Shown here: positions 22,154 to 38,844 of the stretch, piece by piece
Layout: every line of letters begins with the position of its first letter
Numbering within the stretch: the stretch's first letter is position 1
Assembly (NCBI GenBank): GCA_964544985.1
Contig: CAZJEE010000006.1
Span: forward strand, 1 to 42,634
Direction of reading: 5' to 3'
DNA from: an uncultured Candidatus Saccharibacteria bacterium
GTDB lineage: Bacteria; Patescibacteriota; Minisyncoccia; Minisyncoccales; PWPS01
DNA: 42,634 nt
Translations under genes and position numbers: made by a program
The notes under the pieces: generated by a model
The model's input: only the letters and a program-made list of their open reading frames with translations
Databases searched by the model: none
What the model was told of the DNA's origin: nothing

Positions 22154-22981
22154 ATGTGTTTATCTAAAAAACTTATACTTATATTTTTTCTTGCCGTTTT
22201 TCTGATATTCCCAATAATTATTTACGGAACAGAAATTAACTGGCCATCAGCTCCACTAACAGGAGTCTCTCTTTCGGATGATTCTGAATTTCACGATCTC
22301 ATCGCTTACACTTATGGGTGGGGAATTGGATTAGGTGGGCTTCTAACGTTTGCAATGTTTGTCGTCGCTGGCATTGAGTGGATGACATCCGGTGGTAACC
22401 CAAGCAAACAAGCAAAGGCAAAAGCAAGAATAACGTCAGTTCTTCTTGGACTAAGTCTTCTTTTGTCTTCTTGGCTGATACTAAATACAATCAATCCTCA
22501 ACTAACTGTCCTCACGCCTCTTCCATCACTCTGGGACGACAACATGTATGAAGATGAAGAACTTCTATATGATGAAAAAGATTTGCCTTGTGAGTTTGTT
22601 GTTTTTTATGAAAAATCTGATTTTTCTGGAACAACGAGCGGTCCCATTTATCCTCAAGAACAAGGCTATACAAACATTAATCTTTTGATGGATTATCAGT
22701 CTGGTAAGGCGTTCCGCCAAATGACCGAAGAAGAAAAAGAAATAGTGGAAAAATTTGGCCCAGATTTTTTCCACAGGAGAGAAATTTATAACAACAACTA
22801 TATTGAACCCGGTCCGTGTATAATTACAATATATGAAGAAAAAAAGGAAGGACTTTTTAAAAAGAATGCTTGTGGAAAAATTATAGGAACAATCACTTTC
22901 CCTAATAAAAACTTTGCACATGCTTTATTTGGAGAAGTTGAGAAAAAAATAACTTGCTTCGTTGTAGAAGATGTTAATTGA
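22154..22981 (+). CDS. VirB2-like pilin hairpin fused to a roughly 150-aa C-terminal domain (275 aa)
   Basis: Signal peptide, then a two-helix hairpin VAGIEWMTSGGNPSKQAKAKARITSVLLGLSLLLSSWLILNTINPQL shared with four other ORFs here. The C-terminal domain contains FVVFYEKSDFSG. Confidence 0.65.
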   Translation: MCLSKKLILIFFLAVFLIFPIIIYGTEINWPSAPLTGVSLSDDSEFHDLIAYTYGWGIGLGGLLTFAMFVVAGIEWMTSGGNPSKQAKAKARITSVLLGLSLLLSSWLILNTINPQLTVLTPLPSLWDDNMYEDEELLYDEKDLPCEFVVFYEKSDFSGTTSGPIYPQEQGYTNINLLMDYQSGKAFRQMTEEEKEIVEKFGPDFFHRREIYNNNYIEPGPCIITIYEEKKEGLFKKNACGKIIGTITFPNKNFAHALFGEVEKKITCFVVEDVN

Positions 22982-24995
22982 TAAAAAAAAATTGTTTTCG
23001 TTATCTACAAAAATAATCTTTTTTATTTTTCTTTTTGTATTAGTTCCAATTGCCGTAGATGGTTTTGCTCTTGACGCAGGAATGATGGCCCTTGATGCTA
23101 TTTCAGAAAAAACAGGTCCTCTAATGACGTTATTTATGGGATCTTACTTTTTCTTTGCAATTAGTCTTATGGGTTTATGGATTAGCACAACCCTTCTCCA
23201 GGCAGTAATTGATATTAGTCCAGAGGCTCTAACTGTAATGGGGGGAAATGCATCAGCAATGGTCCAAGCCGGATGGAGCTTTACTGTTGGAATAGGGAAT
23301 ATGCTCCTTCTTATCGCCTTCGTAGTTATTGCATTAGCAACCATTTTAGGATACGAAAATTATCATCTGAAAAAACTTCTTCCCCGATTAGTTGTCGTCG
23401 CCTTCTTAATGAACTTTACTCTACTTTTTGTTGGACTGGGAATTGATGTCTCTAACTTTCTTTTTAATTCAGTTGCAAAACAATTTTCAGAAGACGGAGG
23501 AAATATACTTTATAATGCCATAAAACCTCTTCTTACTTTGGGTGGAGAAATTAATTTAAAAATTTTTGGTCTTTTTACCAGTATTGTTGTTGCTCTTCTA
23601 GTTCCCTATTTAAATGTTGCAATTCAAGTGGGATGGATACTCTTTTTCCCTACACAGATTTTACCAATTATAATACAGCTTCTTGTTTACGGAATGATTA
23701 TGTTTTTGATGACAGGGACTTTCTTATTTTATTTCGTTGTTTTTGTCGCACGCATATTTATTATCCAAATACTGGCGATTCTTGGTCCTTTGGCCTTCTT
23801 TTCTTTAATCTTCTCTGAAACACAAAAATGGTGGAAAAAATGGTTGGAATACCTTATCCAGTGGCTTTCTGTCGGAGTAATTTTTATTTTTTTAATGTAT
23901 GTCGGTCTTGCTCTTGCTCCATTAACAAGTTCTTTAATTGAACCAGCTGCAGAAGATGCTCCTGCTTTTATTTCAAAGCTTCTAAGTAGCAATCTCATAG
24001 CTCACCTTATTCTTCTTATCTATTTTATGGTTATTCTTAGTGTCGTTAAAAGCTTTATCCCTGATCTCGCAAAAGCAATTGTCGCTCAAGGAACAGCACT
24101 TATTAAAGCAGCTGTCCCTTATGCGGGAGCAATTGGAAGCGGTGGTAAAAAATATTATCAACATCAAATGTCAGAAAGCAAGCCCTTCCAAGATATGATG
24201 TCTGATTGGTCTAAGTCTATCCCCACAACTCCAGGAGGAGGAAATGTTTGGGAAAGAGCTAAAAGTTTTGCTTTGAGAAGAATTGGCACAAGGTTGGGTC
24301 CAGAAATAAGAGAAGCTGAAAAGAAATCCGCTAATGAATTTGCAGATAAATTAAAGGGAGCTTCTCCAGAAAAAATGGCAAATGCTTACAGAAGTGCTAT
24401 GGGAGGAACAGCGGGAGTAGAAAAATTAGGAGCAATTCTTGCCGCCAAAGAGGCTGGTGTTGTGACGGAATTTTTAGAAGGTCTTAAAGACGTTTTAACT
24501 AGTAATGAATTTGATCAAATTTATAAAAAGGCTGAATCTTCTGGTCTAAAGAGTGACCTTAAAAGAGCTCTCCCTGTTCATTTTATAGAACATGAAACAA
24601 GAGGCCTTTCGGGTGCTAATAAAGAACAAAAAATTAAAGAACTTGTATTGGGAAATCTTAAGGGAGATAAAATGGAAAAAGCAGCACCTCAAATCGTTGA
24701 CGCAATAAATAAAGGAACCACAGAACAGCAGAGTCTTGGTCATCAATTTATGAAAGCAATTATGGAGTCTCAAGACACCTCTTATTTAAAGAACTTCATC
24801 AAGGGGTCTAGTGGTGTCAGTGGTGTTAAAGTAGCAGATGAATATCTTGGTGCGTGGGCTGCAGCAGCAGGAAGAAATCCAAACAACCCGGAACATCTCT
24901 ATAATGCACTAAAAGAAATTAATCCTCAGATGGCAAAAGAGATAAGAACTAGACCTGGTAATATTCTTCTTAATGTAAAACCTCCAACACCATAA
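22971..24995 (+). CDS. VirB6/TrbL-like polytopic membrane protein with a roughly 300-aa soluble C-terminal domain (674 aa)
   Basis: Many TM helices. The segment KLLPRLVVVAFLMNFTLLFVGLGIDVSNFLFNS is paralogous to one in the 25479 ORF. Its position next to VirB3/VirB4-like genes supports the call, which rests on architecture and context. Confidence 0.55.
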   Translation: MLIDKKKLFSLSTKIIFFIFLFVLVPIAVDGFALDAGMMALDAISEKTGPLMTLFMGSYFFFAISLMGLWISTTLLQAVIDISPEALTVMGGNASAMVQAGWSFTVGIGNMLLLIAFVVIALATILGYENYHLKKLLPRLVVVAFLMNFTLLFVGLGIDVSNFLFNSVAKQFSEDGGNILYNAIKPLLTLGGEINLKIFGLFTSIVVALLVPYLNVAIQVGWILFFPTQILPIIIQLLVYGMIMFLMTGTFLFYFVVFVARIFIIQILAILGPLAFFSLIFSETQKWWKKWLEYLIQWLSVGVIFIFLMYVGLALAPLTSSLIEPAAEDAPAFISKLLSSNLIAHLILLIYFMVILSVVKSFIPDLAKAIVAQGTALIKAAVPYAGAIGSGGKKYYQHQMSESKPFQDMMSDWSKSIPTTPGGGNVWERAKSFALRRIGTRLGPEIREAEKKSANEFADKLKGASPEKMANAYRSAMGGTAGVEKLGAILAAKEAGVVTEFLEGLKDVLTSNEFDQIYKKAESSGLKSDLKRALPVHFIEHETRGLSGANKEQKIKELVLGNLKGDKMEKAAPQIVDAINKGTTEQQSLGHQFMKAIMESQDTSYLKNFIKGSSGVSGVKVADEYLGAWAAAAGRNPNNPEHLYNALKEINPQMAKEIRTRPGNILLNVKPPTP

Positions 24996-25012
24996 TAAAA
25001 AATATAGAAATC

Positions 25013-25432
25013 ATGCTTAAAAAATACACGCAAAAAGAATATCATGATTTGTACGAATCTCTCCCTAAAAAAATGCAACATCTTTTTTGGGAAGATGATA
25101 TATCAAATCGTATTGAAAAGATATCTGAAAGATTTGAATTAACTAATAAAGAAATATGGCGAATTACTGAAATTATTGCTCATCTTTTTTTGGGAATTCT
25201 TCCTCCCGAGCACATCAGCTCAGTGATTCAAAAAGAAATTATCTTAAAAGAAGATTTTTCCAAGAAACTTGCGACCGAAGTTATCCGCTTTATAGTTTAT
25301 CCAACTCAACATCTTTTGAAAGAGGTTTATAGTGCCGAAGACTTTCAAAATATTGGAACAGAAAAAATCAATGAAGCAAAAAAGTTTAATAATAGAAAAG
25401 AAGAAGATCTTTATAGAGAACCCATAGATTAA
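25013..25432 (+). CDS. Small soluble protein ending in LYREPID (139 aa)
   Basis: Paralogous to ORF 26990. Both share the ...G-x-LP-x-E... core, a KK-rich tail and a C-terminal YREPI motif. No known family recognised. Confidence 0.6.
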   Translation: MLKKYTQKEYHDLYESLPKKMQHLFWEDDISNRIEKISERFELTNKEIWRITEIIAHLFLGILPPEHISSVIQKEIILKEDFSKKLATEVIRFIVYPTQHLLKEVYSAEDFQNIGTEKINEAKKFNNRKEEDLYREPID

Positions 25433-25478: not shown

Positions 25479-26987
25479 ATGATAAAAAAAATAAAAGAAA
25501 AAAAGATAATTCTCGGAGTTCTCTTGGTTTTAATGATTGTCTCTCTCCCTCTTTTCTTCGCTGACGGAATCACAAATATTGGAGAGCTAACCGCCAGTGC
25601 AATTACTGGAGTGTTTCTCCTTACTACAGCTACTATTTCTTTCGTTTTTTCTACATTTGCAGATTGGTTTTTAAGAATAACTCTTAGTCCAGAATTTATT
25701 AATGTTCCTTATACTCCTGGAGGGGCAGGAGGAGGAAATGAATTTGTCTTCTATGGATGGAGTATTGTGAGAGATTTTGTTAACATGTTCTTTATTTTAA
25801 TTTTAATAATCATCGGACTTTCTACATCATTACAGTTTGAAACTTACAAGTGGCAAAAAACACTGCCTCGTCTTGTTCTTGTTGCGCTCCTTGTAAACTT
25901 TACTCCCGTCATCTTGGGAGTGTTTATCGATTTTACTAACTCGATGATGAACTACTTTGTCGCATCTATTGCCGATGAATCATTTTTTATCGCCAGAATA
26001 GGTAGGCTTTACGAAACCATGGCTTCGAATTTAGCGATTGCCAAATGGACAAGTTATACTGGAGAAATAATCACTCCAGTAGCAATGATGGTTATCTTTA
26101 CTTTGTTCAATCTTTTTACCGGAATTATCTATTCTCTTTACGGAGCTTTATTTGCCTTACGCTATGTCGCTATCTGGCTTCTTGTTATTATCTCTCCTTT
26201 TGGTCTTTTCTGTTATATCCTTCCTGCAACACAACCATTTTTTAAAACATGGCTCAGATGGTTTGTTGGGTGGTGTATTGTAGGAATTACGGGAGCATTC
26301 TTTCTCTATCTTGGAGAAATAATGTTTCAGGCAAGTGCTAGTAATATAACTGAAGAAGTAATGATGCCATCAGTTACTAAGTATCATGAAATGGATATCG
26401 GAGCGTTCATTGAAGTTTTCCCACTCCTCATACCCCTTTTCTTTATCTTCTTTGGTTTTTTAGTTTCTCTATCTATTGCGTCCCTAGGATCAAAAGGAAT
26501 TATTGAAACCTTTCAAAGGGCATCCGGCTCTGCAAGAAAAGCAGCTTCTCAACTGCCCGGATCTACTTTTAAAGAAAAAACAATGGCCGCTTCTGCTGCT
26601 GTTAAAAATGCTTTTAGCCCTGGACCCATGTCTTCTCCGCTCTCTTCGGGAAAATCTTCAGATAAACCTTCTTTTGGTTCTGCAAAAAGTGGAATGCTCC
26701 ATAAGCGTGATATATCAGCTGGTACCTCTAATTCAGGTATAGGAATGAGAATGCCAATAACTGAAACAGCATCTATAGCAAGCGGAGGAATGGAAAATGC
26801 AACAAAAAATATTGCCGCTGAATTTAGTGAAAAAGCAAAACAAAAGCCAGATTCATTAAAGATTGACTCTGCTGGAAAACAACAAAATCAAGCCGACAAA
26901 AAATGTAGTGGTTGTGGAGCAACTGTTAGTGGTGACGCCACATTTTGCCCTCTCTGTAGAAAAAATGTATTACCACAAAAAGAATAA
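25479..26987 (+). CDS. Second VirB6/TrbL-like polytopic membrane protein with a disordered tail and C-terminal zinc ribbon (502 aa)
   Basis: KTLPRLVLVALLVNFTPVILGVFIDFTNSMMNY is paralogous to the 22971 ORF. It has a Ser/Gly/Ala-rich tail and a terminal CSGCGATVSGDATFCPLCRKN. Confidence 0.55.
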   Translation: MIKKIKEKKIILGVLLVLMIVSLPLFFADGITNIGELTASAITGVFLLTTATISFVFSTFADWFLRITLSPEFINVPYTPGGAGGGNEFVFYGWSIVRDFVNMFFILILIIIGLSTSLQFETYKWQKTLPRLVLVALLVNFTPVILGVFIDFTNSMMNYFVASIADESFFIARIGRLYETMASNLAIAKWTSYTGEIITPVAMMVIFTLFNLFTGIIYSLYGALFALRYVAIWLLVIISPFGLFCYILPATQPFFKTWLRWFVGWCIVGITGAFFLYLGEIMFQASASNITEEVMMPSVTKYHEMDIGAFIEVFPLLIPLFFIFFGFLVSLSIASLGSKGIIETFQRASGSARKAASQLPGSTFKEKTMAASAAVKNAFSPGPMSSPLSSGKSSDKPSFGSAKSGMLHKRDISAGTSNSGIGMRMPITETASIASGGMENATKNIAAEFSEKAKQKPDSLKIDSAGKQQNQADKKCSGCGATVSGDATFCPLCRKNVLPQKE

Positions 26988-26989
26988 AC

Positions 26990-27418
26990 ATGAATAAAGA
27001 AATAGACATTATTAACTTACAAGAAGAATATCCGGAATTTTTTGAAGCATTCTCTTCAGAGATTATTGAATTTGTCCTAAGCAAAAAAACTTCACAAAAA
27101 ATTGCCAATATCTGTATTGAAAATAAAATTACCGAAAAAGATTTGGTAGAAGGCATTGCTTTTCGCATCACCTATGTAATTTTTGGAAAACTTCCTAAAG
27201 AAAATCTTATAATAACCCTTAGAGACGGGCTAGAAATAAGTGAAGAAAAAGCAAAAAAGATATCAGAAAGTGTTGATAAAATAATTTTTTCCGAACTAGA
27301 AAGAATAAAGAATAAAAAAGATAAAGATATTGAAAAAAAAACCATTAAAAATGAAGAATCAGCTAAAATTGTAAAAGATGATTTTAAGAAAGACGCCTAT
27401 CGAGAGCCGATAGGATAA
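26990..27418 (+). CDS. Small soluble protein ending in AYREPIG (142 aa)
   Basis: Paralog of ORF 25013, in the same position immediately after a VirB6-like gene. Confidence 0.6.
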   Translation: MNKEIDIINLQEEYPEFFEAFSSEIIEFVLSKKTSQKIANICIENKITEKDLVEGIAFRITYVIFGKLPKENLIITLRDGLEISEEKAKKISESVDKIIFSELERIKNKKDKDIEKKTIKNEESAKIVKDDFKKDAYREPIG

Positions 27419-27423: not shown

Positions 27424-27834
27424 ATGCAATATAAAGTACCAAGACACGTAGATTATAAAGCCAAGATTGTTGGCCCAGCAACTTTTTCACAACTGTTATA
27501 TATCGGCGCAGCTGGTCTTGTCGTTCTTTTTTTATATTTCATTATGGGAGGATCTCCTTTTTTCCTTCCTATTGCAATTATCTTGGGAGCAGGAGGAGTA
27601 TCGCTCGCTTTTCTTCAAGTTGCAGGACAACCCCTTCCGGAATATGTTAGAAAAATGATTCTTTTTAGCATCTCTTCAAGAGAATACATCTGGGAGAAAA
27701 AAATTATTCCTCTAGAAGAAGCTTTTCCAAAAAGAATGAAAATTGTTCCCGAAGAAACAAAAGAAGAAGGCGGTCCTAAGTCAAAGAAAAGAGGAAGTCT
27801 TGGAGATATCGCTAGCAAGATAGAAACATTTTAA
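27424..27834 (+). CDS. PrgI-family (VirB3-like) T4SS membrane protein
   Basis: An N-terminal MQYKVPRHVDYKAKIVGPATFSQLLYIGAAGLVVLFLYF followed by a second TM helix is the typical PrgI/VirB3-like signature of Gram-positive-type T4SS. It lies directly upstream of VirB4. Confidence 0.7.
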   Translation: MQYKVPRHVDYKAKIVGPATFSQLLYIGAAGLVVLFLYFIMGGSPFFLPIAIILGAGGVSLAFLQVAGQPLPEYVRKMILFSISSREYIWEKKIIPLEEAFPKRMKIVPEETKEEGGPKSKKRGSLGDIASKIETF

Positions 27835-27857: not shown

Positions 27858-28484
27858 ATGGCGCCAAAAAGTGCACAAGATTTTATCCCCATCAAGCAAG
27901 TAAGAGATGGTATTATAATCCTTAAAAACAAGGGACTTAGATCAATTCTAATGGTTTCTTCTATTAATATTGCTCTTAAATCAAGAGACGAACAAGAAGC
28001 CATTCTTTATCAATTCCAATCCTTTCTAAATTCTCTTGATTTCCCCTGCCAGATTGTAGTGCAATCAAGAAAAACAAACATCACCGGCTATATCGAAAAG
28101 ATAAAAAAATTAGAAGAAGAGCAGAAAAATGAACTTTTAAAACAGCAAACTGCTGGTTACAGAGAATTTTTGGAAGAATTTGTTACTAGAGAGTCTATTT
28201 ATACTAAAAACTTTTTTGTTGTTGTGCCTTATTCTGTTCCCGCAATAGGAGGTTCAAAAAAAACCACAAAAGGAACCATTAATTTAAATGAAGATAGTTT
28301 TCAGAGAGGAAAAGATCAACTTTACCAAAGAATGGAATTTGTTGCTCTTGGTCTTCGTCGTTGTGGTTTACACTGTGCTCCTCTAACGACAATTGAAGTT
28401 ATCGAGCTTTTCTGGTCACTCTTCCATCCGAAAAGTGCGGAGAGTGGATATTATCCAGAGTTTCCTGAAGAGTTAACATCATAA
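27858..28484 (+). CDS. VirB4-family N-terminal domain encoded as a separate ORF (208 aa)
   Basis: FIPIKQVRDGIIILKNKGLRSILMVSSINIALKSRDEQEAILYQFQSFLNSLDFPCQIVVQS matches the N-terminal region of Gram-positive VirB4-type ATPases. It stops 4 nt before the ATPase ORF, in a different frame. Confidence 0.6.
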   Translation: MAPKSAQDFIPIKQVRDGIIILKNKGLRSILMVSSINIALKSRDEQEAILYQFQSFLNSLDFPCQIVVQSRKTNITGYIEKIKKLEEEQKNELLKQQTAGYREFLEEFVTRESIYTKNFFVVVPYSVPAIGGSKKTTKGTINLNEDSFQRGKDQLYQRMEFVALGLRRCGLHCAPLTTIEVIELFWSLFHPKSAESGYYPEFPEELTS

Positions 28485-28488: not shown

Positions 28489-30285
28489 ATGGGATTATTA
28501 GAAGATTTTAAAACATTAATTGGAAAAGGAGAAAACAGTTCTTCTTCTGAAGAAAAAACAAACTCGCTGAGAATCGTGGATGTTATTGCTCCTTCTTCAA
28601 TTCAAGAACTCCAAGGACAACTCCGCGTAGAAGAAAAGTTTTCAAGATCGTTTTTTGTTTTTTCTTATCCTCACTACATTACCGCTGGATGGGTTTCTCC
28701 AGTTATCAATCTTAATGTCCAACTAGATATATCTTTCTTTATTCATCCAGCAAGTACGGAAGATATTTTAAAGAAACTTCGTAAAAGATTAACAGAAGTA
28801 CAGGCAGAAATAATGGACACTGAAGAAAAAGGGCTGGTAAGAAACCCCATGCTCGAGACTGCTTATCAAGACATGGAAGAGTTAAGAGATCGCCTACAAT
28901 CCGCGCAAGAGAGAATGTTTTACTTTGGTCTTTACATCACAATCTATGGAGATTCTGAAAAAGAGATAGAAGAAACAGAAAGCGTATTAAGGTCTATCTT
29001 TGAATCAAAGGTTATTTATGTCCGTCCTGCTCTCTTCCAACAAGCGGCTGCTTTTACCAGTACATCCCCTTATGGAATGGATCTTTTACAAACTCATACT
29101 CCGATGAACACCGAACCACTTTCTAGTATCTTTCCTTTTATCTCTTTTGATCTAACGTCTTCTGATGGAATCCTTTACGGAGTAAATAAGCACAACCGCT
29201 CTCTTGTTCTCTTTGATCGCTTCTCTTTAGAGAACGCGAACGCAGTAATCTTTGGTACTTCTGGTGCTGGAAAATCTTATCTTGTTAAGCTCGATGTGCT
29301 TCGTTCTTTAATGAGTGGAATAGAAGTTATTATTGTCGACCCTGAAAACGAATACCGGACTCTTGCCGAGTCTGTCGGAGGTGCTTTCTTTAATATATCT
29401 CTTGGTTCATCACACCAAATTAATCCTTTTGATATTCCTATTCCAGGAGAAGGAGAAAGCGCTGCAGAAGTTTTAAGAACAAACACAATCAATCTTGTTG
29501 GACTCTTGCGTATTATGTTGAAAGGTCTCGGTCCTGAAGAAGATGCTCTCATCGATCAAGCAATTACCGAAACTTATGCTGCAAGAGATATCACCCCCGA
29601 GAGTGATCCTAATACTTGGGCGGATAAAGTTCCTTTACTTTCTGATTTAGAACAAATTTTAGAGTCTATGGAGGGAACAAGGCCACTTGTATTGCGCCTG
29701 AGAAGATTTACTCAAGGAACATACTCTAACTTTTTTAATCATCACACTAATATTTCGGTTGAGAACAATCTTACGGTTTTTGGTATTAGAGATCTTGAAG
29801 ACGAAATGAGACCTATCGCAATGTTTATTATCATGCGCTATATCTGGAAAACGGTCTCCTCTTCTCTGAAAAAAAGATTATTTGTGATTGATGAGGCTTG
29901 GCTGATGATGCAGAATGAAGATGGAGCATCTTTCCTTTTCGGTCTTGTAAAGAGAGCCAGAAAATACTGGCTTGGAGTTACTACAATTACTCAAGATGTT
30001 TCTGACTTTATGCAATCTGGTTACGGAAAACCAATTGTTACTAACTCAGCGCTAAAAATACTTTTAAAACAGTCTTCAGCAGTAATCGATATGATCCAAA
30101 AAGTTTTTAATCTTACAGAAGAAGAAAAATTCATTCTTCTTGAAGGAGAAGTAGGAGAGGGAATTTTCTTTGCTGGACAAAAGCACGTAGCAATCAAGAT
30201 AACCGCGTCTTACACAGAAGATCAGATTATTACCTCTTCGCCGGAAGAAATAGAAAAAATGAAAAAAGCAAAAGCTCGGTTTTAA
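28489..30285 (+). CDS. virB4: VirB4-family T4SS ATPase (middle and C-terminal ATPase domains)
   Basis: Walker A GTSGAGKSY, Walker B RLFVIDEAWLMM, and downstream TTITQDVSDF. It starts with the YP...GW segment that normally follows the VirB4 N-domain. The 208 + 598 aa total about 800 aa, the usual VirB4 length. Confidence 0.85.
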   Translation: MGLLEDFKTLIGKGENSSSSEEKTNSLRIVDVIAPSSIQELQGQLRVEEKFSRSFFVFSYPHYITAGWVSPVINLNVQLDISFFIHPASTEDILKKLRKRLTEVQAEIMDTEEKGLVRNPMLETAYQDMEELRDRLQSAQERMFYFGLYITIYGDSEKEIEETESVLRSIFESKVIYVRPALFQQAAAFTSTSPYGMDLLQTHTPMNTEPLSSIFPFISFDLTSSDGILYGVNKHNRSLVLFDRFSLENANAVIFGTSGAGKSYLVKLDVLRSLMSGIEVIIVDPENEYRTLAESVGGAFFNISLGSSHQINPFDIPIPGEGESAAEVLRTNTINLVGLLRIMLKGLGPEEDALIDQAITETYAARDITPESDPNTWADKVPLLSDLEQILESMEGTRPLVLRLRRFTQGTYSNFFNHHTNISVENNLTVFGIRDLEDEMRPIAMFIIMRYIWKTVSSSLKKRLFVIDEAWLMMQNEDGASFLFGLVKRARKYWLGVTTITQDVSDFMQSGYGKPIVTNSALKILLKQSSAVIDMIQKVFNLTEEEKFILLEGEVGEGIFFAGQKHVAIKITASYTEDQIITSSPEEIEKMKKAKARF

Positions 30286-30335: not shown

Positions 30336-33300
30336 ATGAAAAAACTTCTTTTTTTGTCGCTATTAATTGCTATTTTTGTTGTTACGCCGTTTTTTGCTTT
30401 TTCACAGGAAATAATTTACCCAAGTATTCCTGGCGTTGCCGCTCCACAAGAATTTTTAAAAGAAGTTCAGTCACAGGAAGAGATTCTTCCTCTTTTTATG
30501 ACCTATTTTTTCCACCTGTTTTTAGTAGTTTCAATTGCTGTCGCCGTCAGCATCATGCTTTACGGTGGCTTTATTTACATTATTTCCTCTGGTGATCCAG
30601 AAAAAAGAAAACATGGAAAAAGTTGGATGCTTAGTGCGCTTCATGGATCTTTGATAGTTTTTGCTTCTTATTCTCTTTTATTTACTCTCGACTCTCAACT
30701 TGTTCTTTTTCAACAAAGAGAGATAGATAAGACGGGAACTGAAGGGAAGGTGGATTTAAAATGGGAAATAAAGAATGTTTATTATCAAATACCTTTTGGA
30801 CTTTTAATTGAAGACGCTATATTAAACGAAACCGCACAAAGCAAGCTTTACGATGTACTTAATGCAACATACAAAGCAGAAGATACTTCAAACGCAATAG
30901 AGCAAGGAAGTAAACAACTTTTAGAAATTATAGAGAAGTGCCCTGATAAAGAACCATGTTGTGGAGAAGGTGGAGACATTAACTCTCCTCCTATAAATAA
31001 AAAAGTAACTCCAAAGGAAGAAAAAAAAGCTCCTTTGTGGGTACTTGAAATAAATAAATTATTTGAAAAAACCGGCATCACAGATTGGGAAAAGCCAGAA
31101 AACGAAGTAATACTCACTTCTGAAAAAATTGATAAATCTCTTTTTAGTGAAGATTATGTTCAGATTAATCAACCAAATCTATTTAAGATAGCAGGCGTGG
31201 TGCCTCCTCTTGTCGATGGCAACGGAAAGCCAATCGGTTCTATTACATTTTCTTTTGGAGAAGAGTACACTGGGGGATTACACCGAGGAACGGATATCTC
31301 GGCGCCTCTTGGTAGCACAATTCAATCTACAACCGAGGGCTTTGTAATTTATGCAGGCGACATGGGAGGTACGGCAGGAGGTGCTGTCTCTATTCTTTAT
31401 CACGACGAAAAAACCGATACGCATTTTATTATTCATTATGTACATCTTGACATCAATAGTATCACACCTACGGCTGGAAAAAAAATATCCCAAGGGCAAA
31501 AGATAGGGGAAATAGGGACATCTGGAAGGGTTTTTATATCAGACAAGGATAAGGGACTTCTTCATTACGAGGTAATACTTCTTGATAAAGACACTGACAT
31601 TGGGCCAATAATAAGAGGAGAGTGTCTTTATACTTGCGGAAAAGCAATCGATCCCGTAAAAAATGGGTTTCTTAAAATAAATACGGATAAAACAAGTTAT
31701 CAAAATATCTTTTTTGCCTCTCTCTTTACCGCTTTTAATCCAACAACATCTCTTCTAACTTTGTCTTTTGTGATTCTTATCCTTCTTGCTTTCTTATTTT
31801 TATCTATCAAAGTAACTGCTCTACAGAAAAAAGTTCCTTTCACAAGAATTAGAAAAAGAAGTTTTACTTCTATTGTTTCTATTGTTCTTGTGCTTTCTCT
31901 CGCCCTTTCATCTCTTCCAATTAGTTATCTTCAAAAATCACCTTCCCTTGTTCTAAAAGAAAGTATTAAAATGCAAAATCAAACAGAGCTTTCATTTAGT
32001 CATCTAAATTTTAATATTGTTTTTGCAGAAAATAACGAAGGAAATTCATACTGGCAACACGTTTGGAAAGAAACAAAAGAAGGTGCTGTGTTGGGTGGAG
32101 CGACAGGAGCCACGGTTGGAGGTTTAGCTCTAGGTTATTTAGGGGCAGTTTTTGGAGCAGGAGGAGGAGGAGTACTGGGATTCGGAGTGGGTGCTATTCC
32201 TGGAGCAATATTAGGAGGAGCTCTTGGAACAGCAGTTGGCGGAGCAGGAGGTGCAATATTGGGAGGAGTAGCAGGAGGGCTTGTAAGAGGAGGATGGGCT
32301 CTTTTCACTTATGAAGAAGCAGAAGAAAAGTGTCCTGACAATAGTTCTCCTCAAATAGATCCTTGTGGAGAAGGCCAAACTGAAGTAGAACAAATAACAG
32401 ATCCTGATACCGGGAAAACCATTTATTGTTGTGAGGAGGAAGAAGAGGAAGAAGATACTTTTACAGAAAACTGTGAGTTTTATAAAGACGAATGTCCAGA
32501 CGGCTGTAATCTCGGAAATGACTCAACTGATTGTGGAGGAAATACTCCTTCACCATCTCACCTGTGTTGTTGTTGTGAAGAAGAAGAAGAAGAAAAATGT
32601 GGCAAAGAAGGAGAAGAATGTGATAATGAGAATCTATGTTGTGAAGAACTAAAATGTGAAGATGGAAAATGTATTGAAAAAGAGGAAGGAGAATGTTCCG
32701 ATGGCCTTGAAAAAGAAAGTGAAACTACTTGTAACCAAAAACAACTAGAAAGAGGATGTGAACCAGAGACTGTAAATGGGAAAGATATTTGTTGCTGTAA
32801 AGAAGAAATAGACTGTTCTCAGTTGTTTGGAGAAGATTATAGTCTTACCGATGAACCATCATGTTCTGAAGGACAAGCTAAACATGGCTGTGAAGAAATT
32901 CAAGATGAAGAAGGAAATGCCATAGGTTGTTGTTGTCCAGAAGAACCATTTTGTCTAGAAGACGGATGTGATGTCGCAGAAAAATGTCCTGAAGGAACTC
33001 TTAAAACCGATGAATTAGATGGAATGCTTTGTTGTTGTGAAGAGGAAGAAGAAGAGGAAGAAGAATGCCCTAAATGTCCTGATATTGCTTCTGCTGTACA
33101 AGCTAAAATAGGAGAAATAGAAGGACACATGACACAGCTTGCAAAAGACTTAGAAGCTCTTCTTTTAACAAAAGAACCTATTAAAGAAGACCTATATCAA
33201 TTATACAAAGTAGTGATGCTTAAAAGTTTAGGATATAAACAGGTTTTTGGATATAACTCTTTACTCCTTGAGAAAAGATACTATGAAAGAGGAGAGGTGG

Positions 33301-34451
33301 TTATTGATACCGATAGAGAAGTATCACAAATTGGAAAATACACCTGGGATTGGAGCCGCTGGATTAACAACATCCTTTATCGCATTGAATTAGGAGGAAG
33401 AGTAATCGAAGAAAATGATTCAGCAACTTTCTATCTAAGAATGCCTGAGTCAAAGAAGATTGTAGAAGATGCACTAAGATTGGCTAAAGAAGCAAAAGCT
33501 AATGATATTCAAAAGATAGGAAAAGATATTAGTGTAAAGAAGCCACAATCTCAGAACATATTCCAAAAAGTTTTCTCTTTGGTAACTGGAATATTCTCTG
33601 ATCTTGGATCAAAAGAAACTCTTGCTCAAACTGACATGAAAAAACTTCAAGATTATTTAGATGAACACAAAATAGATCCTGCAAAAATATCAGCTACTGA
33701 GTTTAACGAAATTGTGAAGAAGCTAGGAATAAGTACAGACCAAGGCCAAACACTAAGTGTCTTACAAAGAATGTCCCCTAGTGAATTTTTAGAATGTAAT
33801 ATGGAAATACCAATAGGAGAGGCTTTCGAACTAACATGGGCACATCTAATCGAGTTATTAGACACAATAGATAAATATGTTGAAGAAGGAAAGAAGCTTA
33901 TCGAACAACAAGCAAAGATGAATGAACTTGCTCGTCCTTGTGATTGTCCTTGTGAGGGAGACGAAAAGTGCCCTAATACTTGCGGGGCATGTAAACTAAC
34001 CTGTGATTTAAATGCAATAAAAGCTGCTCATCAAGAAGTTCTAAAAACAAGAGAAAAGATGAAAGAAATTGCCGCACACATTGTACTTCTTACTGATGGT
34101 CACTTTAATACCCCTACTGAAAATCTCTGTGACTCTCTAAATGAAGATGTAAGGGATGACGCAGAGAAGGTTTTGTGTGCCGGTGGAGGAAAAAAACTTA
34201 TCAGCAAACATGAATTAATTACTAGAAAGCTTAACTACTCTAGATTTAGTTTCGATGAATGTATCACTCGTCCAGAACACTTAGAGGATGTGTTGGGGGG
34301 AAAAAGAGCAGGAAAGCTTCCTTTCTTTGGGCCACTTGTTGAAGAAAAGGGAATCCCAAGATATACGAAGACAATAGTAAGCGGTTCTCGTGTCAACACA
34401 AGCGACTTTAATTGGTTCTGTTGTTCCGATTCAAAATTAGAAGATAAATAA
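30336..34451 (+). CDS. Giant modular surface protein: pilin hairpin, M23 peptidase, TM and Gly-zipper segments, poly-Cys/Glu region and a conserved Cys-knot C-module (1371 aa)
   Basis: Signal peptide plus hairpin LYGGFIYIISSGDPEKRKHGKSWMLSALHGSLIVFASYSLLFTLDSQL. M23 motifs LHRGTDISAPLGSTI, HYVHLD and GEIGTSG. Two internal TM helices and a Gly-rich stretch. 38 Cys in residues 666-914. The C-terminal roughly 450 aa is paralogous to ORF 35584. Confidence 0.8.
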   Translation: MKKLLFLSLLIAIFVVTPFFAFSQEIIYPSIPGVAAPQEFLKEVQSQEEILPLFMTYFFHLFLVVSIAVAVSIMLYGGFIYIISSGDPEKRKHGKSWMLSALHGSLIVFASYSLLFTLDSQLVLFQQREIDKTGTEGKVDLKWEIKNVYYQIPFGLLIEDAILNETAQSKLYDVLNATYKAEDTSNAIEQGSKQLLEIIEKCPDKEPCCGEGGDINSPPINKKVTPKEEKKAPLWVLEINKLFEKTGITDWEKPENEVILTSEKIDKSLFSEDYVQINQPNLFKIAGVVPPLVDGNGKPIGSITFSFGEEYTGGLHRGTDISAPLGSTIQSTTEGFVIYAGDMGGTAGGAVSILYHDEKTDTHFIIHYVHLDINSITPTAGKKISQGQKIGEIGTSGRVFISDKDKGLLHYEVILLDKDTDIGPIIRGECLYTCGKAIDPVKNGFLKINTDKTSYQNIFFASLFTAFNPTTSLLTLSFVILILLAFLFLSIKVTALQKKVPFTRIRKRSFTSIVSIVLVLSLALSSLPISYLQKSPSLVLKESIKMQNQTELSFSHLNFNIVFAENNEGNSYWQHVWKETKEGAVLGGATGATVGGLALGYLGAVFGAGGGGVLGFGVGAIPGAILGGALGTAVGGAGGAILGGVAGGLVRGGWALFTYEEAEEKCPDNSSPQIDPCGEGQTEVEQITDPDTGKTIYCCEEEEEEEDTFTENCEFYKDECPDGCNLGNDSTDCGGNTPSPSHLCCCCEEEEEEKCGKEGEECDNENLCCEELKCEDGKCIEKEEGECSDGLEKESETTCNQKQLERGCEPETVNGKDICCCKEEIDCSQLFGEDYSLTDEPSCSEGQAKHGCEEIQDEEGNAIGCCCPEEPFCLEDGCDVAEKCPEGTLKTDELDGMLCCCEEEEEEEEECPKCPDIASAVQAKIGEIEGHMTQLAKDLEALLLTKEPIKEDLYQLYKVVMLKSLGYKQVFGYNSLLLEKRYYERGEVVIDTDREVSQIGKYTWDWSRWINNILYRIELGGRVIEENDSATFYLRMPESKKIVEDALRLAKEAKANDIQKIGKDISVKKPQSQNIFQKVFSLVTGIFSDLGSKETLAQTDMKKLQDYLDEHKIDPAKISATEFNEIVKKLGISTDQGQTLSVLQRMSPSEFLECNMEIPIGEAFELTWAHLIELLDTIDKYVEEGKKLIEQQAKMNELARPCDCPCEGDEKCPNTCGACKLTCDLNAIKAAHQEVLKTREKMKEIAAHIVLLTDGHFNTPTENLCDSLNEDVRDDAEKVLCAGGGKKLISKHELITRKLNYSRFSFDECITRPEHLEDVLGGKRAGKLPFFGPLVEEKGIPRYTKTIVSGSRVNTSDFNWFCCSDSKLEDK

Positions 34452-34458: not shown

Positions 34459-35541
34459 ATGAAAAAAAAGATTCTACTTCTATGCCTCTTTTTCTTCCTT
34501 TTGCTCATTGTGTTTTTTGCCACCGATTCTTTTGTTTTCTCCCAAGGATTAGAAGTTGAATATCCTTCAATTGATAATTATCGTCCAGTAGCTGGTGGGT
34601 CAGAAGAGCTTCCTAATTACTTAAAATACATCATTCGCTTTCTTACACTTAGTGCCGGAATTGTTGTTTTTGGATCCCTTGTTTACGGAGGTTTTTTATG
34701 GATGACATCAGAAGGAGAACCATTAAAAGTTCAAAAAAGTAAAAAACAGATACTTTCTTCGTTTGTCGGTCTTCTGATTATCATCTCTTCTTTTGTTCTT
34801 CTTAATTCTATAAATCCTACCCTTGTTGAGTTGAAAAAAATAGAGATTATTGAAGTAGAAAATGTAAATTCACCAGGAGTTTACCTTTCTTTAAGTGGAT
34901 CTTTCCATGAAAGCAACTTCGAAGAAATGCAAAAAAATGTAAGGAAAATTACTTCTCCTGAAGGAGGGCTGGGAAACTTAAAAGGAAGAATAAAGGCTAT
35001 CCGAATCGTTAACCCTCTAGATGAAAATAATCAGCTAACCTATCGTTATATCGTTGTTTTACATGGCAAAGAAAACTTCAGAGGGCCGTGCGAGTTTATC
35101 TTAACCAACAATTCAGAACACAACTTTACAAACATTAGTGGTGATATTTTAGCAAATACCTTTTCTATTACTGTCTTTAGGGCTGAACGCTACGGACAGT
35201 CTCCGTACGGAAGAGTTGTTGTTTATAACAAGCCTGACTTTGAAGATAAATTTGGATCAGAAAGATTACTTACAACAACAACCGATAACTTCACTCCTTT
35301 AGCCGCCGGGACTCAGCCATGGTCAATAGAAATCGAAGGAGATTACGCAATTATTTTAGCTTCTGGATCAAGCTGGGATCAGATAAATGACGAATGTGTT
35401 GTCTTTGCCTCATCAAAGCCCATCCCTAATCTCACTAGTCATTACATGAACACCTGTAATCCGTTTCTCCTTTCCCACTTCTTCTCGGTCTATGACTCAT
35501 GTGCAACTCACTATGCACTTTTTCCTCTCTTTAGAAGATAA
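34459..35541 (+). CDS. VirB2-like pilin hairpin fused to a roughly 240-aa C-terminal domain (360 aa)
   Basis: Signal peptide, then VYGGFLWMTSEGEPLKVQKSKKQILSSFVGLLIIISSFVLLNSINPTL, then a beta-rich-looking domain (VVLHGKENFRGPCEF, VVVYNKPDFEDKFG). Confidence 0.65.
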   Translation: MKKKILLLCLFFFLLLIVFFATDSFVFSQGLEVEYPSIDNYRPVAGGSEELPNYLKYIIRFLTLSAGIVVFGSLVYGGFLWMTSEGEPLKVQKSKKQILSSFVGLLIIISSFVLLNSINPTLVELKKIEIIEVENVNSPGVYLSLSGSFHESNFEEMQKNVRKITSPEGGLGNLKGRIKAIRIVNPLDENNQLTYRYIVVLHGKENFRGPCEFILTNNSEHNFTNISGDILANTFSITVFRAERYGQSPYGRVVVYNKPDFEDKFGSERLLTTTTDNFTPLAAGTQPWSIEIEGDYAIILASGSSWDQINDECVVFASSKPIPNLTSHYMNTCNPFLLSHFFSVYDSCATHYALFPLFRR

Positions 35542-35583: not shown

Positions 35584-38500
35584 ATGAAATTATTTTCATT
35601 CATAGTAATTTTTCTTTTACTTTTTTCCTTTATTGTCTCTGCTCAAACAGAGGTTATTTATCCGTCTCTTCCAGGAGTTCTCTCTCCTCAAGAAATTGCC
35701 AATCAAGTCCAGTCACAACAAGAGATCTTCCCTCTTTTTATGGCTTACCTTTTTCGCCTCCTTGTTGTTATTTCTGTCTCAGTTTGTTTGTCTATTATCC
35801 TTTATGGAGGACTTCTTTATCTTTTTTCCTCGGGAAATTCCGAAAAAAAACAAAATGCAAAAAGCTGGATATTAAGCGCCCTACATGGCGCTCTTATTAT
35901 TTTTATCTCTTACTCCCTTCTTCTGGCTCTTGATTCTCGACTGATTCTCTTTAATCTCAATGAATTAAAAAAGGGAAATGAGATAGAAAAAATTCACCTA
36001 GAGTGGATTATAAAACAAATTTATTTTCAGATACCGTTTGGTCTTTTAGTTGAGGAAGCAGCAACCAATGAAAATGCTCGCGATAGATTTTATGATATAT
36101 TAGATGCGCTCTACGATGCAGAAGACACCGCAGATGCAATAATCTGGGGAGGAAAAGATCTTTTAGGGATAATAGATGTCTGCCCAATAGGAATGGAATG
36201 TTGTGATGATTTTCCTTTTTGTGAGTGGCCACCGATACCCTTTGCAATACTTCAGCGGGAAAAAGAACCACGTCCTAATTTAAATTGTTTTTGGAACAGC
36301 ATGGCAAAAAGATCTGGAGTTCCTACAATATTAACACGTCCTCCTGTAAAACCACTTCCTTTGGATGCAGTAGATAACTTTCTTGATATAGTAGATACAA
36401 AGCATCATATCAAAATCACAATAAATGAACTTGAAGAAGTAGTAGAAAGTTTTTTTGATCCTCGTATAGAAAAAGGAGATCCTCTTTGGCCTCTTAGAGA
36501 ATCTTTACTGGAAATTATCCGCGAAGTAGATGAAATACTTGCTCATCAAAAAACTGGATTTGATTTAGTAATAGAAGTAAGAAAAATAACAAGAAAAATA
36601 GATTCTCTTATTAATGAATATCCTCTTTTAAAGGAGTCTCCTTTTTGGAATGTTTTAGAAAAAATGTCAGGAGATTGGCTATTAGGAAAAGAGTCATTTG
36701 CAAAAGGAGAATCTGGTTATCGAGATATTCCCTATATTGAACAAGACGATCTTCGATGGAGACATATTAGATATAATTACGATACCCTTTACTCTTCCGG
36801 TTGTCTTTTGGCTTCTACCACAATGGCTCTCAAAAGTTTTGGAATTGATGTGGACATTATCGAAGCATTACGTTTTTCAAAAGCAAATGGACACACAGGT
36901 ATTATGGGTGGAACTCTTTTTCCTTTTACTTGTCATTTTGCACAAACACACGGTTTAAATTGCAAAAGAATAACCAACCCTAGTCCTTCTCATTTCCCAG
37001 AAATGATTAGCTGGCTTGAAAATAAGGGGCCGATTGTAATTGGAGGAATCGGCCATCCTTGGAGTATGGGAGGAGGACACGCCATTCTTTTAACTGGAGT
37101 AGATAGGAATAAAAGAGTAGTATATCTTAACGATCCATCAAGAGCTTTCTTGCATTCAGTAACTTTCGGAGAAGTTTTAAGTAACATGCCTTTTGAACTC
37201 GGCTATATTTCAAAGAAAGAAATTGCAGAGGCTCCTCTTTTTATTGAAGATTCTTTACTATGTGAATCAACGCCTAACAAGATCCTTGGGAGTCATGGTG
37301 GAGGAGATGGCGATTGCCCTGAAATATCTTGTGCTATCCAAATAAAAATCAACGAAATACAGCTTTACATGTTTAAACACCAAAGAGACCTGTGGGTTAT
37401 ATTTTTTGCAAAGGATCTTAAAAAAGAAGGTCTTTATCAACTTTATAAAGCACTGATGCTAAAAAGTTTAGGCATAGAACATCTTCTAAGCTATACAGAT
37501 CTTCTGTTAGAAAAAAGTTATTATAATGAAAAAGAAGAAGTGGTAATTACAACAGACAGTGATTTTACAAAAATACATAGATACAATACTTCTGGAGAAA
37601 ACCCCTATATTTGGAACTGGCAAAAATGGATTAATAATATTGTTTATAAAAAAGATATTGACTGTCACGTTACAATCGCCAACGATCCTGCAACTTTTTA
37701 TTTAAGAAAACCTAGTGCAGACGAGATTATAAAAAACGCCTTAATAGAGCTTGCCTATCGCAGAAAACAAGCAGATATTCAATACTTGGAAATAGAAAAA
37801 TTAATTAAAAGAGACACCACCCTTATCGGTAAAGTAGAGGGTGTTGTTGAAGAAATCTTTAGTGACCCTTATCTAAATATCTTTTTTTCTTCTCCTTTCA
37901 TCAAAAAAGAAATAGGATCTCTTGGTATCTCTCCAGAAATAATTTGGTACTATCAACGTTTTTTAAAACAGTCTTCTCCCTTAGTAACTGCTTCGCTTTC
38001 TCCAAACTACAATGCTATTTTAGCTCTCAATAATTATTTTTTAGAAAACAACATCGACCCACAACTAATTTCTGAAGAAGAACTCCTCAAAATATTAAAG
38101 TTACTAGATATAAGTCCAGAAGAAATATCAATTTCAGAGATCAGAAACACTGACATTGCACATCCCAGCGAATACCTTTCTTGTGGAATGGAAATTCCCG
38201 TTGGAGAAACATTTGAGCTAATATGGGATCATTTTATAGATCTTTTGTTTGTTATGGACGGTTATATTGTGGAAGGGTTATATCTCTTAGAACTTCAAGA
38301 ATATATGAATTATTTAGCTTCGTTTTGCTCCTGTCCGTGCGTTGATCCATGCTGTGAGTGTGATCCTCCATATTCTGGAGCATGCACTCTATTTTGTGAC
38401 AAAGCTACAATTGCCGGTCTTTACTACGGAGAAATTATTCCAACAAGAATGAGAATGCTAAGTATTGCGGAATATATTAAACACTTAACTCAGGGATTTT

Positions 38501-38844
38501 TTAACAATCCTTCAGAAAATATTTGTATTTTAATTAATGAGGATATAAGAGACAACGAAGAAAAAATACTTTGCAATTCTGGTGGAAAAAAGTTTATCAC
38601 AAAACATGAACTAATTACTAGAAAATTAAATTATTCAAGACATGCTCTTGATGAATGCATAACTCGTCCCGAACAAGTGGGTGATATTTTAGACGCAACA
38701 AACGTAGGAAAAGTCACCGTGTTTGGCCCATTTGCTGAAAAAGAAAATCTTCAAAGATATACTAAAACAAAGATAGATAACGTAATGATAAATACTCATG
38801 AGTTTAATTGGTTCTGTTGCTCTGATACACGACTGGAAAAATAG
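35584..38844 (+). CDS. Giant modular surface protein: pilin hairpin, C39-like papain-fold Cys peptidase and a conserved Cys-knot C-module (1086 aa)
   Basis: The first roughly 210 aa and last roughly 500 aa are paralogous to ORF 30336. The middle carries IPYIEQDD...SSGCLLASTTMAL (Cys407), GGGHAILLTGVD (His499) and YLNDPS (Asp517), a C39-like peptidase pattern. Confidence 0.8.
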   Translation: MKLFSFIVIFLLLFSFIVSAQTEVIYPSLPGVLSPQEIANQVQSQQEIFPLFMAYLFRLLVVISVSVCLSIILYGGLLYLFSSGNSEKKQNAKSWILSALHGALIIFISYSLLLALDSRLILFNLNELKKGNEIEKIHLEWIIKQIYFQIPFGLLVEEAATNENARDRFYDILDALYDAEDTADAIIWGGKDLLGIIDVCPIGMECCDDFPFCEWPPIPFAILQREKEPRPNLNCFWNSMAKRSGVPTILTRPPVKPLPLDAVDNFLDIVDTKHHIKITINELEEVVESFFDPRIEKGDPLWPLRESLLEIIREVDEILAHQKTGFDLVIEVRKITRKIDSLINEYPLLKESPFWNVLEKMSGDWLLGKESFAKGESGYRDIPYIEQDDLRWRHIRYNYDTLYSSGCLLASTTMALKSFGIDVDIIEALRFSKANGHTGIMGGTLFPFTCHFAQTHGLNCKRITNPSPSHFPEMISWLENKGPIVIGGIGHPWSMGGGHAILLTGVDRNKRVVYLNDPSRAFLHSVTFGEVLSNMPFELGYISKKEIAEAPLFIEDSLLCESTPNKILGSHGGGDGDCPEISCAIQIKINEIQLYMFKHQRDLWVIFFAKDLKKEGLYQLYKALMLKSLGIEHLLSYTDLLLEKSYYNEKEEVVITTDSDFTKIHRYNTSGENPYIWNWQKWINNIVYKKDIDCHVTIANDPATFYLRKPSADEIIKNALIELAYRRKQADIQYLEIEKLIKRDTTLIGKVEGVVEEIFSDPYLNIFFSSPFIKKEIGSLGISPEIIWYYQRFLKQSSPLVTASLSPNYNAILALNNYFLENNIDPQLISEEELLKILKLLDISPEEISISEIRNTDIAHPSEYLSCGMEIPVGETFELIWDHFIDLLFVMDGYIVEGLYLLELQEYMNYLASFCSCPCVDPCCECDPPYSGACTLFCDKATIAGLYYGEIIPTRMRMLSIAEYIKHLTQGFFNNPSENICILINEDIRDNEEKILCNSGGKKFITKHELITRKLNYSRHALDECITRPEQVGDILDATNVGKVTVFGPFAEKENLQRYTKTKIDNVMINTHEFNWFCCSDTRLEK

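Follow-up and report, generated by a model that had tools for sequence, protein, structure and literature searches.

The window analysed here is the whole 42,634-nucleotide stretch of contig CAZJEE010000006.1, a patescibacterial sequence with a G+C content of ~33%. Between positions 22154 and 38844 it carries 11 co-directional open reading frames (ORFs) on the + strand, which encode, in this order, proteins of 275, 674, 139, 502, 142, 136, 208, 598, 1371, 360 and 1086 amino acids (aa) and form the locus of a type IV secretion system (T4SS). A preliminary description of this DNA had labelled these genes as pilin fusion, VirB6-like, YREPI protein, VirB6-like with a zinc ribbon, YREPI protein, PrgI/VirB3-like, VirB4 N-terminal domain, VirB4 ATPase, pilin-M23 giant, pilin fusion and pilin-cysteine peptidase giant, and profile matches agree with nearly every label. 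It had also counted twelve ORFs. The gaps recomputed from the coordinates range from -11 to +50 nucleotides, as it stated, so that a twelfth ORF cannot fit inside 22154-38844, and only 11 were counted from the ORF coordinates. The twelfth co-directional, conserved partner is located at 21464-22129 and ends 24 nucleotides upstream of the first pilin fusion.

Four of the 11 proteins, together with the product of a stand-alone gene, share a VirB2-like hairpin of two transmembrane (TM) helices, and in the four operon proteins the hairpin is fused to other domains. The hairpin-encoding genes are the following:

6471..6860, + strand: stand-alone VirB2-like pilin, 129 aa
22154..22981, + strand: pilin-hairpin fusion, 275 aa, with a signal-like segment, a 2-TM VirB2-like hairpin (~residues 40-121) and a 160-aa C-terminal domain
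30336..34451, + strand: giant 1, 1371 aa, pilin hairpin with an M23 peptidase
34459..35541, + strand: pilin-hairpin fusion of 360 aa, about 240 of them in a C-terminal domain
35584..38844, + strand: giant 2, 1086 aa, pilin hairpin with a Peptidase_C39_2 domain (residues 381-518) in the place of M23

Conservation and topology of the hairpin

The 275-aa fusion matched PF18895 (T4SS_pilin) at 1.4e-9, over the curated cut-off, and the pilin-like family NF045849 at 1e-4. The stand-alone pilin also exceeded the cut-off (PF18895, 1.3e-8) and matched TrbC at 0.002. For the proteins encoded at 30336-34451, 34459-35541 and 35584-38844 the PF18895 matches were 3e-4, 4e-4 and 7.5e-5, respectively, and the 360-aa fusion matched NF045849 at 3e-7. 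These three proteins are homologous to the 275-aa fusion according to BLASTP and phmmer (BLASTP 8e-14 for the 360-aa fusion), and the 360-aa fusion has a 63% identical orthologue in the related locus L003. In an alignment of the five hairpins a signal-like segment precedes TM1 and TM2, which enclose a G..S.G.P.K loop, and 6 positions are invariant. Together with the PF18895 matches, this confirms the hairpin that had been noticed in the four operon ORFs and in the gene at 6471. Directly behind TM2 there is a conserved INP motif. In the operon fusions the signal-like segment is directly followed by the motif E-[IV]-x-[YW]-PS-x-P, also visible in the consensus of 87 relatives.

Like VirB2/TrbC pilins, these proteins combine a signal sequence with two TM helices that are joined by a short charged loop. 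A small size, limited to the hairpin, is found in the product of the 6471 gene (129 aa) but not in the operon proteins (275, 360, 1086 and 1371 aa). The relationship to VirB2/TrbC that had been proposed is supported by the PF18895 matches, and the link with TrbC is provided by one protein (P0201), which is matched by the hairpin profile at 2.7e-60, by TrbC at 1.2e-42 and by PF18895 at 6.7e-80. At E<=1e-3 the profile of the window hairpins retrieves 82,331 representative proteins, and the hairpin hidden Markov model (HMM) detects neither PrgF nor the N-terminus of PrgK of pCF10. Of the top matches of the profile, 150 were listed and 148 (P0199-P0346) were re-scanned. In 138 of these a single chain carries 2-16 hairpins in tandem, with 11 hairpins in P0201 and 16 within the 1775 aa of P0199. 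The contig on which P0199 is encoded (at 10001-15328 of L084) also encodes ribosomal protein L39e and Cas4 and looks archaeal.

The stand-alone pilin gene lies 15 kb upstream of the operon, between tRNA-Arg(tcg) and tRNA-Lys(ctt) (positions 6354-6951). Since the ORF listed for it (6360-6860) overlaps a tRNA, the true start is probably the ATG at 6471.

The loop of the hairpin is rich in K/R, a signal-like segment precedes the hairpin, and the cargo is Cys-rich or a peptidase; from this, the loop is predicted to lie in the cytoplasm, with both termini outside as in VirB2. These topology-relevant features agree with the suggestion that the fused cargo is outside the cell, and the fused domains of 150-1250 aa would face the cell exterior. 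The domains that follow the hairpin in the 275- and 360-aa proteins had no meaningful match in the PDB; the best one was a CFA/I fimbrial subunit (E=0.007), in which no stretch passed.

Occurrence of the fused hairpin in related loci

A scan of species-representative genomes provided 80 related loci, all of them from metagenome-assembled genomes (MAGs) named Pacebacteria, Nealsonbacteria or Patescibacteria. Their ORFs were mapped with HMM and phmmer searches, and hairpin ORFs were counted up to 10 kb from virB4. One hundred hairpin ORFs were obtained in this way: in 78 the hairpin is N-terminal and followed by a long extension, in 17 it is C-terminal, in 2 it is internal and 3 are stand-alone; 95 of the 100 are fused to large domains. 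The N-terminal-hairpin fusions have a median length of 465 aa and a maximum of 1436. A broader HMM made from ~500 hairpins gave the same distribution of fused and stand-alone forms. Clustering at 50% identity sorted the fusions into 87 groups, and 67 of the 87 representatives match PF18895 on their own. Domains recognised in these representatives were Peptidase_C39_2 (5), M23 (4), Ig-like (4), LTD (2) and NosD/beta-helix (1), most of them having none. Judged from the sequences, the fused hairpin is thus the rule in this lineage of Paceibacteria.

The 17 proteins with a C-terminal hairpin have 231-1090 aa, are usually encoded between ksgA and the N-hairpin gene and in some cases contain LysM/M23-like parts. 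They occur in loci L012, L014-L018, L020, L021, L045, L050, L055, L057, L074, L076 and L081.

The architecture of the operon recurs in other MAGs. The recurrent order starts with DksA, a M23/LysM gene on the opposite strand, KsgA, a bitopic protein and at least one pilin-hairpin fusion; it continues with a VirB6-like and a YREPI protein (sometimes a second pair), PrgI, the TrsD-like ORF and VirB4, often followed by more hairpin fusions. In many relatives yidC, dnaA, dnaN, a class A penicillin-binding protein (PBP) gene, tyrS and yebC are then found downstream, and this recurrence identifies the locus as part of the chromosomal core, close to the origin, in agreement with published work. VirB4 of the window is 88-91% identical to that of the nearest relatives (L003-L006), and TrsD 81-88%; in the same genome pairs the identity is only ~50% for KsgA and 33-57% for the hairpin fusions and the VirB6-like proteins. 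VirB4 and TrsD are hence far more conserved in this comparison than the housekeeping protein KsgA.

Peptidase-bearing giant proteins

Giant 1 begins with a signal-like segment, the pilin hairpin, a conserved N-domain and the M23 peptidase (residues 315-415; 4.4e-13). Behind these come additional hydrophobic and Gly-zipper segments and a region rich in Cys and Glu; a conserved domain, also rich in Cys, forms the C-terminal end of the protein, which contains 56 Cys in total. The PDB relatives of its M23 domain are DipM (the best match), LytM and ShyA. Giant 2 matched PF13529 at 1.5e-7 and C70 at 2.9e-6, and its papain-like C39_2 domain retains the Cys and the His. The two giants are paralogues, with 46% identity over the N-terminal 246 aa and 42% over ~510 aligned columns at the C-terminal end, and they differ in the middle part (M23 versus the papain-like domain). 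A lytic transglycosylase or muramidase domain was not recognised in them, since neither giant matched an SLT or lysozyme family.

The giant scaffold is rare, with 17 relatives in a large protein collection and presence in 3 of the 80 loci. In four of the relatives (P0012-P0015) M23 is inserted within the conserved C-terminal domain, and P0012 also carries C39_2. Since M23 sits elsewhere in these proteins, the scaffold accepts enzyme modules at several positions.

Both giants are membrane-anchored proteins encoded directly after virB4. This slot holds PrgK in pCF10 and wall hydrolases in Southlakia epibionticum, and by analogy the giants may be the machine's own VirB1-type hydrolases and not delivered cargo. 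The CwlT hydrolase of ICEBs1 occupies the same slot. The display or delivery of enzymatic cargo that the preliminary description proposed is conjectural.

Core of the secretion machinery

The core components of the machine, two of them probable VirB6-like proteins, are encoded by five genes of the operon:

22971..24995, + strand: VirB6-like polytopic membrane protein a, 674 aa, with ~9 hydrophobic segments and a long hydrophilic C-terminal tail
25479..26987, + strand: VirB6-like polytopic membrane protein b, 502 aa; its C-terminal part contains the zinc-ribbon-like motif CxxC-x10-CxxC
27424..27834, + strand: PrgI/VirB3-like protein, 136 aa, 2 TM (PF12666)
27858..28484, + strand: TrsD-like ORF, detached VirB4 N-terminal domain, 208 aa (NCBIfam)
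28489..30285, + strand: VirB4 ATPase of the CD1110 / MPF_FATA type, 598 aa (NF045971)

The VirB4 ATPase matched NF045971 (VirB4-like, CD1110 family) with 354.9 bits (cut-off 325), over model positions 181-734 only, and P-loop_TraG of Pfam at 6e-26. The Walker A (GTSGAGKS) and Walker B (LFVIDEAW) motifs reported for it were both located in this ORF. It has more than 8000 relatives, the best of which are named Pacebacteria, Nealsonbacteria or Patescibacteria. The 208-aa ORF matched positions 103-234 of VirB4_plasma at 1.6e-13, TrsD at 5.4e-9 and positions 2-171 of the CD1110 model. All these scores are under the curated cut-offs, which are set for whole proteins and which a fragment would not be expected to reach. 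Because it matches the N-terminal part of the VirB4/TrsD models that is absent from 28489-30285, VirB4 is split into two ORFs, as had been proposed; the TrsD-like ORF is present in all 80 related loci. The 136-aa protein matched PF12666 at 1.4e-8 (35.6 bits, cut-off 27). The CD1110-family VirB4, the PrgI/VirB3 protein and the TrsD-like ORF identify the system as a T4SS of the Gram-positive (MPF_FATA) type, which was also the earlier assignment.

The profile checks thus gave matches for PF18895, PrgI and VirB4 but none for the VirB6-like proteins of the window. The latter are paralogues (28% identity over 239 aa, 1e-19), and the zinc-ribbon matches of protein b in Pfam range from 0.002 to 0.08, all under the cut-off. 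An AlphaFold2 (AF2) model of residues 1-400 of protein a had a predicted local distance difference test score (pLDDT) of 85, and its best Foldseek matches among 350,542 PDB chains were TrwI/VirB6 of R388 and DotA, with a probability of 0.99 and E-values of 0.03-0.3. One of the 54 members of the VirB6-like family (P0154) matches TrbL of Pfam at 2.6e-5 (24.5 bits, under the cut-off of 25.9), and the comparison of the VirB6-like proteins with a single PrgH by hhalign was insignificant (E=0.067). Support thus came from the fold search and the one family member that matches TrbL, and proteins a and b are likely VirB6-like.

Accessory proteins

Three further proteins, two of them encoded within the operon and one directly upstream, accompany the core:

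21464..22129, + strand: up221, bitopic membrane protein with a TM segment at residues 9-27 and an outward-facing PsbP-like domain
25013..25432, + strand: YREPI protein a, 139 aa, no TM segment; a soluble helical domain is followed by a charged linker and, at the very C-terminus, DxYREPI(E)
26990..27418, + strand: YREPI protein b, 142 aa, ending in AYREPIG

The up221 gene overlaps the end of ksgA, and 21 orthologues are found at the same position in related loci. The protein has no Pfam match, and its profile matched the PDB entries CyanoP (2xb3) at E=2.6e-5 and PnsL1 at 0.01. Identification as a VirB8-like protein was rejected, since the profile matches PsbP-like and not NTF2-like proteins; up221 may be an unrecognised T4SS accessory factor. 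The two YREPI proteins are 23% identical (E=8e-6) and have no relative in Pfam or the PDB. In their orthologues, present in 46 loci, a terminal D-x-Y-R-E-P-I-E is strictly conserved after a K/E/P-rich linker, and from this conservation the C-terminal peptide looks like a candidate docking motif.

Conjugation genes and surroundings of the operon

No relaxase family was matched by the window ORFs of at least 130 aa, oriT not having been searched for, and no VirD4/TcpA-type coupling ATPase (type IV coupling protein, T4CP) was matched in the same set. Neither had been recognised in these 42 kb in the preliminary description, and the profile matches agree. A conserved 630-aa neighbour in the relatives is the class A PBP and not a T4CP. 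The designation of the system as a T4SS without coupling ATPase holds for the window, but it describes the already published norm and is not concludable genome-wide from 42 kb, because VirD4 homologues occur elsewhere in many patescibacterial genomes.

The window flanks of the operon consist of housekeeping genes, with ksgA at 20644-21474. A promoter scan was at background (60 sites versus 58 expected), so that the boundaries of the operon are not set by it. On the 3' side there are insertion sequence (IS)-like split ORFs, with HTH_28/HTH_32 matches only, and an unassigned 318-aa ORF (39032-40299 and 41066-42022, the latter on the - strand). The relatives have yidC-dnaA-dnaN-PBP-tyrS where the window has the IS-like ORFs, and the window tyrS is located at 2522-3688 on the - strand, which suggests a rearrangement.

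Two ORFs upstream, at 10013-14494 and 14542-17523, encode giant K/E-rich coiled-coil proteins of 1493 and 993 aa, with a strong purine skew, no TM segment and no Pfam match. The two are linked weakly by phmmer, and the 1493-aa protein contains the repeated motif KRW..E(E/D).RR.IE..(K/R)W.

Comparison with known systems

The essential T4SS of S. epibionticum contains pilin subunits and has no recognisable coupling or relaxase proteins, and a large peptidase gene and a lysozyme gene after virB4 belong to it (Wang 2023, PMC10633639). Genes for VirB4, TrsD, PrgI, VirB6 and PF18895/VirB2-like proteins are widespread in Patescibacteria, in which relaxases are rare (Quinonero-Coronel 2025, PMC12102498), a picture restated in a 2025 review. 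In the same survey T4CP homologues were usually far from virB4, VirD4 homologues occurred in many genomes, and 109 relaxases were present in the patescibacterial data set, 15 of them near virB4 (PMC12102498). Current reviews speculate that VirB2-like 'pilin arrays' build a conjugative-type pilus. The PrgF protein of pCF10 has been described as a VirB2-like subunit that, in a model, sits on a pentamer of VirB6 and has its two ends outside, in a preprint that searched proteins of 50-150 aa only (bioRxiv 10.64898/2025.12.18.695078). The relaxase- and T4CP-less half of the finding is hence already published. The fused-pilin architecture was not found described: literature searches on PF18895, fusions or peptidases gave no mention of VirB2-like modules fused to other domains, which agrees with the preliminary description, in which no pilin-hydrolase fusion was known.

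The cluster of S. epibionticum ML1 (SEML1_0006-0019) resembles that of the window in its VirB4 with an adjacent TrsD-like ORF, PrgI, two VirB6-like proteins (probable ones in the window), PF18895 pilins, large wall-hydrolase genes directly after virB4, and the absence of relaxase and T4CP. Patescibacterial T4SS are also chromosomal and, in the relatives, near dnaA. However, the pilins of S. epibionticum are an array of small stand-alone genes, whereas four hairpins of the window are fused to domains of 150-1250 aa, and the 1114-aa peptidase and the lysozyme/Cys-protease protein after its virB4 have no listed PF18895. Between its VirB6 genes there is an NTF2-like (VirB8-like) gene, where the window has the YREPI proteins, and the PsbP-like upstream partner is not among the retrieved S. 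epibionticum T4SS annotations.

In pCF10 (NC_006827) the gene order is prgF (VirB2-like)-prgG-prgH (VirB6-like)-prgI-prgJ (VirB4)-prgK (hydrolase), like that of the window, and both VirB4 proteins belong to the same NCBIfam family. From this order, the first fusion occupies the VirB2 (prgF) slot and the giants the wall-hydrolase (prgK) slot. In contrast to the window, pCF10 encodes LPXTG adhesins as well as a relaxase and a T4CP, its PrgF is an unfused protein of 75 aa, its VirB4 is a single protein, and PrgK has another N-terminal anchor and muramidase-type domains. The VirB2/TrbC/TraA pilins of Gram-negative systems share with the window hairpins the signal sequence, the two TM helices, the short charged loop and the PF18895/TrbC profile links, but have ~70-130 aa, are often processed or cyclised and form homopolymeric pili, while the operon proteins have 275-1371 aa. 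Families of the Mycoplasma integrative and conjugative element (ICE), i.e. the pilin-like Mbov_0395 and the VirB4 Mbov_0397, are matched under the curated cut-offs by two hairpin proteins (1e-4 and 3e-7), the TrsD-like ORF (1.6e-13) and VirB4 (3e-83); unlike the window locus, the Mycoplasma systems are mobile elements. We know of no pilin fusions in them.

Discussion

The locus is a chromosomal, vertically inherited, MPF_FATA-derived Patescibacteria T4SS, of a Nealsonbacteria-like member of Paceibacteria. Our preferred reading, held with moderate confidence, is that in such a T4SS the hairpin serves to attach enzymes and binding domains, which face outwards, to the VirB6 platform or a pilus. 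The hairpin would be the module by which VirB2-like subunits assemble on a VirB6 pentamer, and fusion to it would recruit domains to the T4SS channel; alternatively, the fusions might be built into a short conduit resembling a pilus, either as minor or terminal subunits or as its decoration. The giants would fill the VirB1/PrgK-type hydrolase slot and bring M23 and papain-like peptidases to the place where the apparatus crosses its own wall, and probably that of the host too. The smaller, highly variable fusions could serve as lineage-specific contact domains. Instead of conjugative DNA transfer, the system probably carries out the transport of proteins or other macromolecules.

Several points weigh against this reading. 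Three of the four operon hairpins score under the Pfam curated cut-off. The VirB6-like proteins of the window match no Pfam, NCBIfam or PDB-sequence entry, and the Foldseek E-values behind their likeness to VirB6 (0.03-0.3) are weak. The link of the hairpin to VirB6 or a pilus is itself one that we infer from sequence. The M23 domain of giant 1 reads LLH (~400-415) at the usual HxH motif, while HxxxD and the internal His are kept; because of this replacement its activity is uncertain, and it could be a weakened or a regulatory enzyme comparable to DipM. The C39-like domain has a sole PDB lead at E=0.23, to chains that we take to be Tae4-type amidases and do not use as evidence, and its wall-cleaving activity is putative. 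For the conserved domain at the C-terminal end of the giants there is no PDB sequence match; its AF2 model has a pLDDT of 54, and the best Foldseek E-value is 0.26. The absence of a coupling ATPase applies to the 42-kb window, and a VirD4 homologue may exist elsewhere in the genome. Finally, 1000 aa of cargo per subunit would be hard to fit in a canonical VirB2 helix, as estimated from published pilus geometry. Since a helix made entirely of giants is sterically implausible, the giants would be at most minor or anchored subunits.

A bolder version of the docking model, which we offer tentatively and consider rather unlikely to hold, takes the VirB2-like hairpin as a general polymerisable display module. 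In Paceibacteria the T4SS would then build a short conduit with outward-facing domains on its subunits, an enzyme-armed pilus with the giants at its base or tip cutting the host wall, and the tandem chains of 2-16 hairpins would be pre-assembled rings or segments. If true, such a pilus would mediate epibiotic attachment and uptake or delivery.

One important question is whether the hairpin does more than hold these proteins in the membrane. In the giants, and perhaps in every fusion, it might be a plain two-helix anchor that arose by duplication of a pilin gene. The giants would then be ordinary VirB1-type hydrolases that act on the cell's own wall during T4SS assembly and take part neither in a pilus nor in host contact, and the 6471 gene would encode the real pilin. 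The position of the giants in the PrgK slot after virB4, the existence of that stand-alone pilin and the membrane anchoring of Gram-positive VirB1 analogues are all consistent with this, and the size of the giants would speak against polymerisation. One TM segment would do for an anchor, but 95 of the 100 hairpin ORFs near virB4, including the 17 with a C-terminal hairpin, retain the complete hairpin and its conserved loop motif; moreover, the first fusion gene keeps its prgF-like place beside a VirB6-like gene, and the majority of the fused domains are not hydrolases. We regard the plain anchor as possible but doubtful.

A less probable explanation, to which we give little credence, is that the fusions are pro-proteins. 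After Sec/YidC insertion, a cut behind TM2 near the INP motif would free a normal-sized pilin and a secreted enzyme or adhesin, and the tandem poly-hairpin proteins would be polyproteins. Gram-negative VirB2/TrbC pilins such as RP4 TrbC and Ti VirB2 are indeed processed at both ends, a conserved motif does lie directly behind TM2, and chains with 2-16 tandem hairpins exist. However, no protease site or TraF-like maturation protease was identified in the operon, cleavage is not evident from the sequence, and a signal peptide by itself suffices for the secretion of cargo.

It is very improbable that the operon belongs to an ordinary conjugative element with relaxase, oriT and VirD4 just beyond the window. 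Its VirB4 is of a conjugation-type family, IS-like ORFs lie at 39-42 kb, and there are the VirD4 homologues elsewhere in many patescibacterial genomes. On the other hand, the flanking genes are housekeeping genes, KsgA/DksA upstream and yidC-dnaA-dnaN downstream recur across dozens of species, VirB4 is much more conserved than KsgA, and the whole patescibacterial data set contains only 109 relaxases, 15 of which are near virB4. This conserved synteny argues against a mobile element, in agreement with the earlier view that the system is non-conjugative. An assembly or gene-calling artefact, in which the long ORFs would be chimeric or read-through products, can be dismissed as extremely unlikely despite the metagenomic source and the two-ORF form of the giant scaffold in L019 and L032, because all these genes, including the 1371-aa ORF, are present at the same size in independent assemblies from ENA and JGI, 17 full-length relatives come from varied sources, and the giant paralogues are conserved end to end.

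For surveys, these results are a caution against counting PF18895 matches as pilins or limiting searches to proteins of 50-150 aa. The patescibacterial T4SS is required for epibiotic growth in the single species tested, S. epibionticum (PMC10633639), and the fused hairpins bear on whether such systems build a pilus at all. Because 95 of the 100 VirB2-like modules near virB4 carry large external domains, some of them wall peptidases, the structure, if fusion holds more widely, may not be a canonical pilus but a platform carrying enzymes and host-binding domains, and the fusions are concrete candidates for host-contact and wall-breaching factors.

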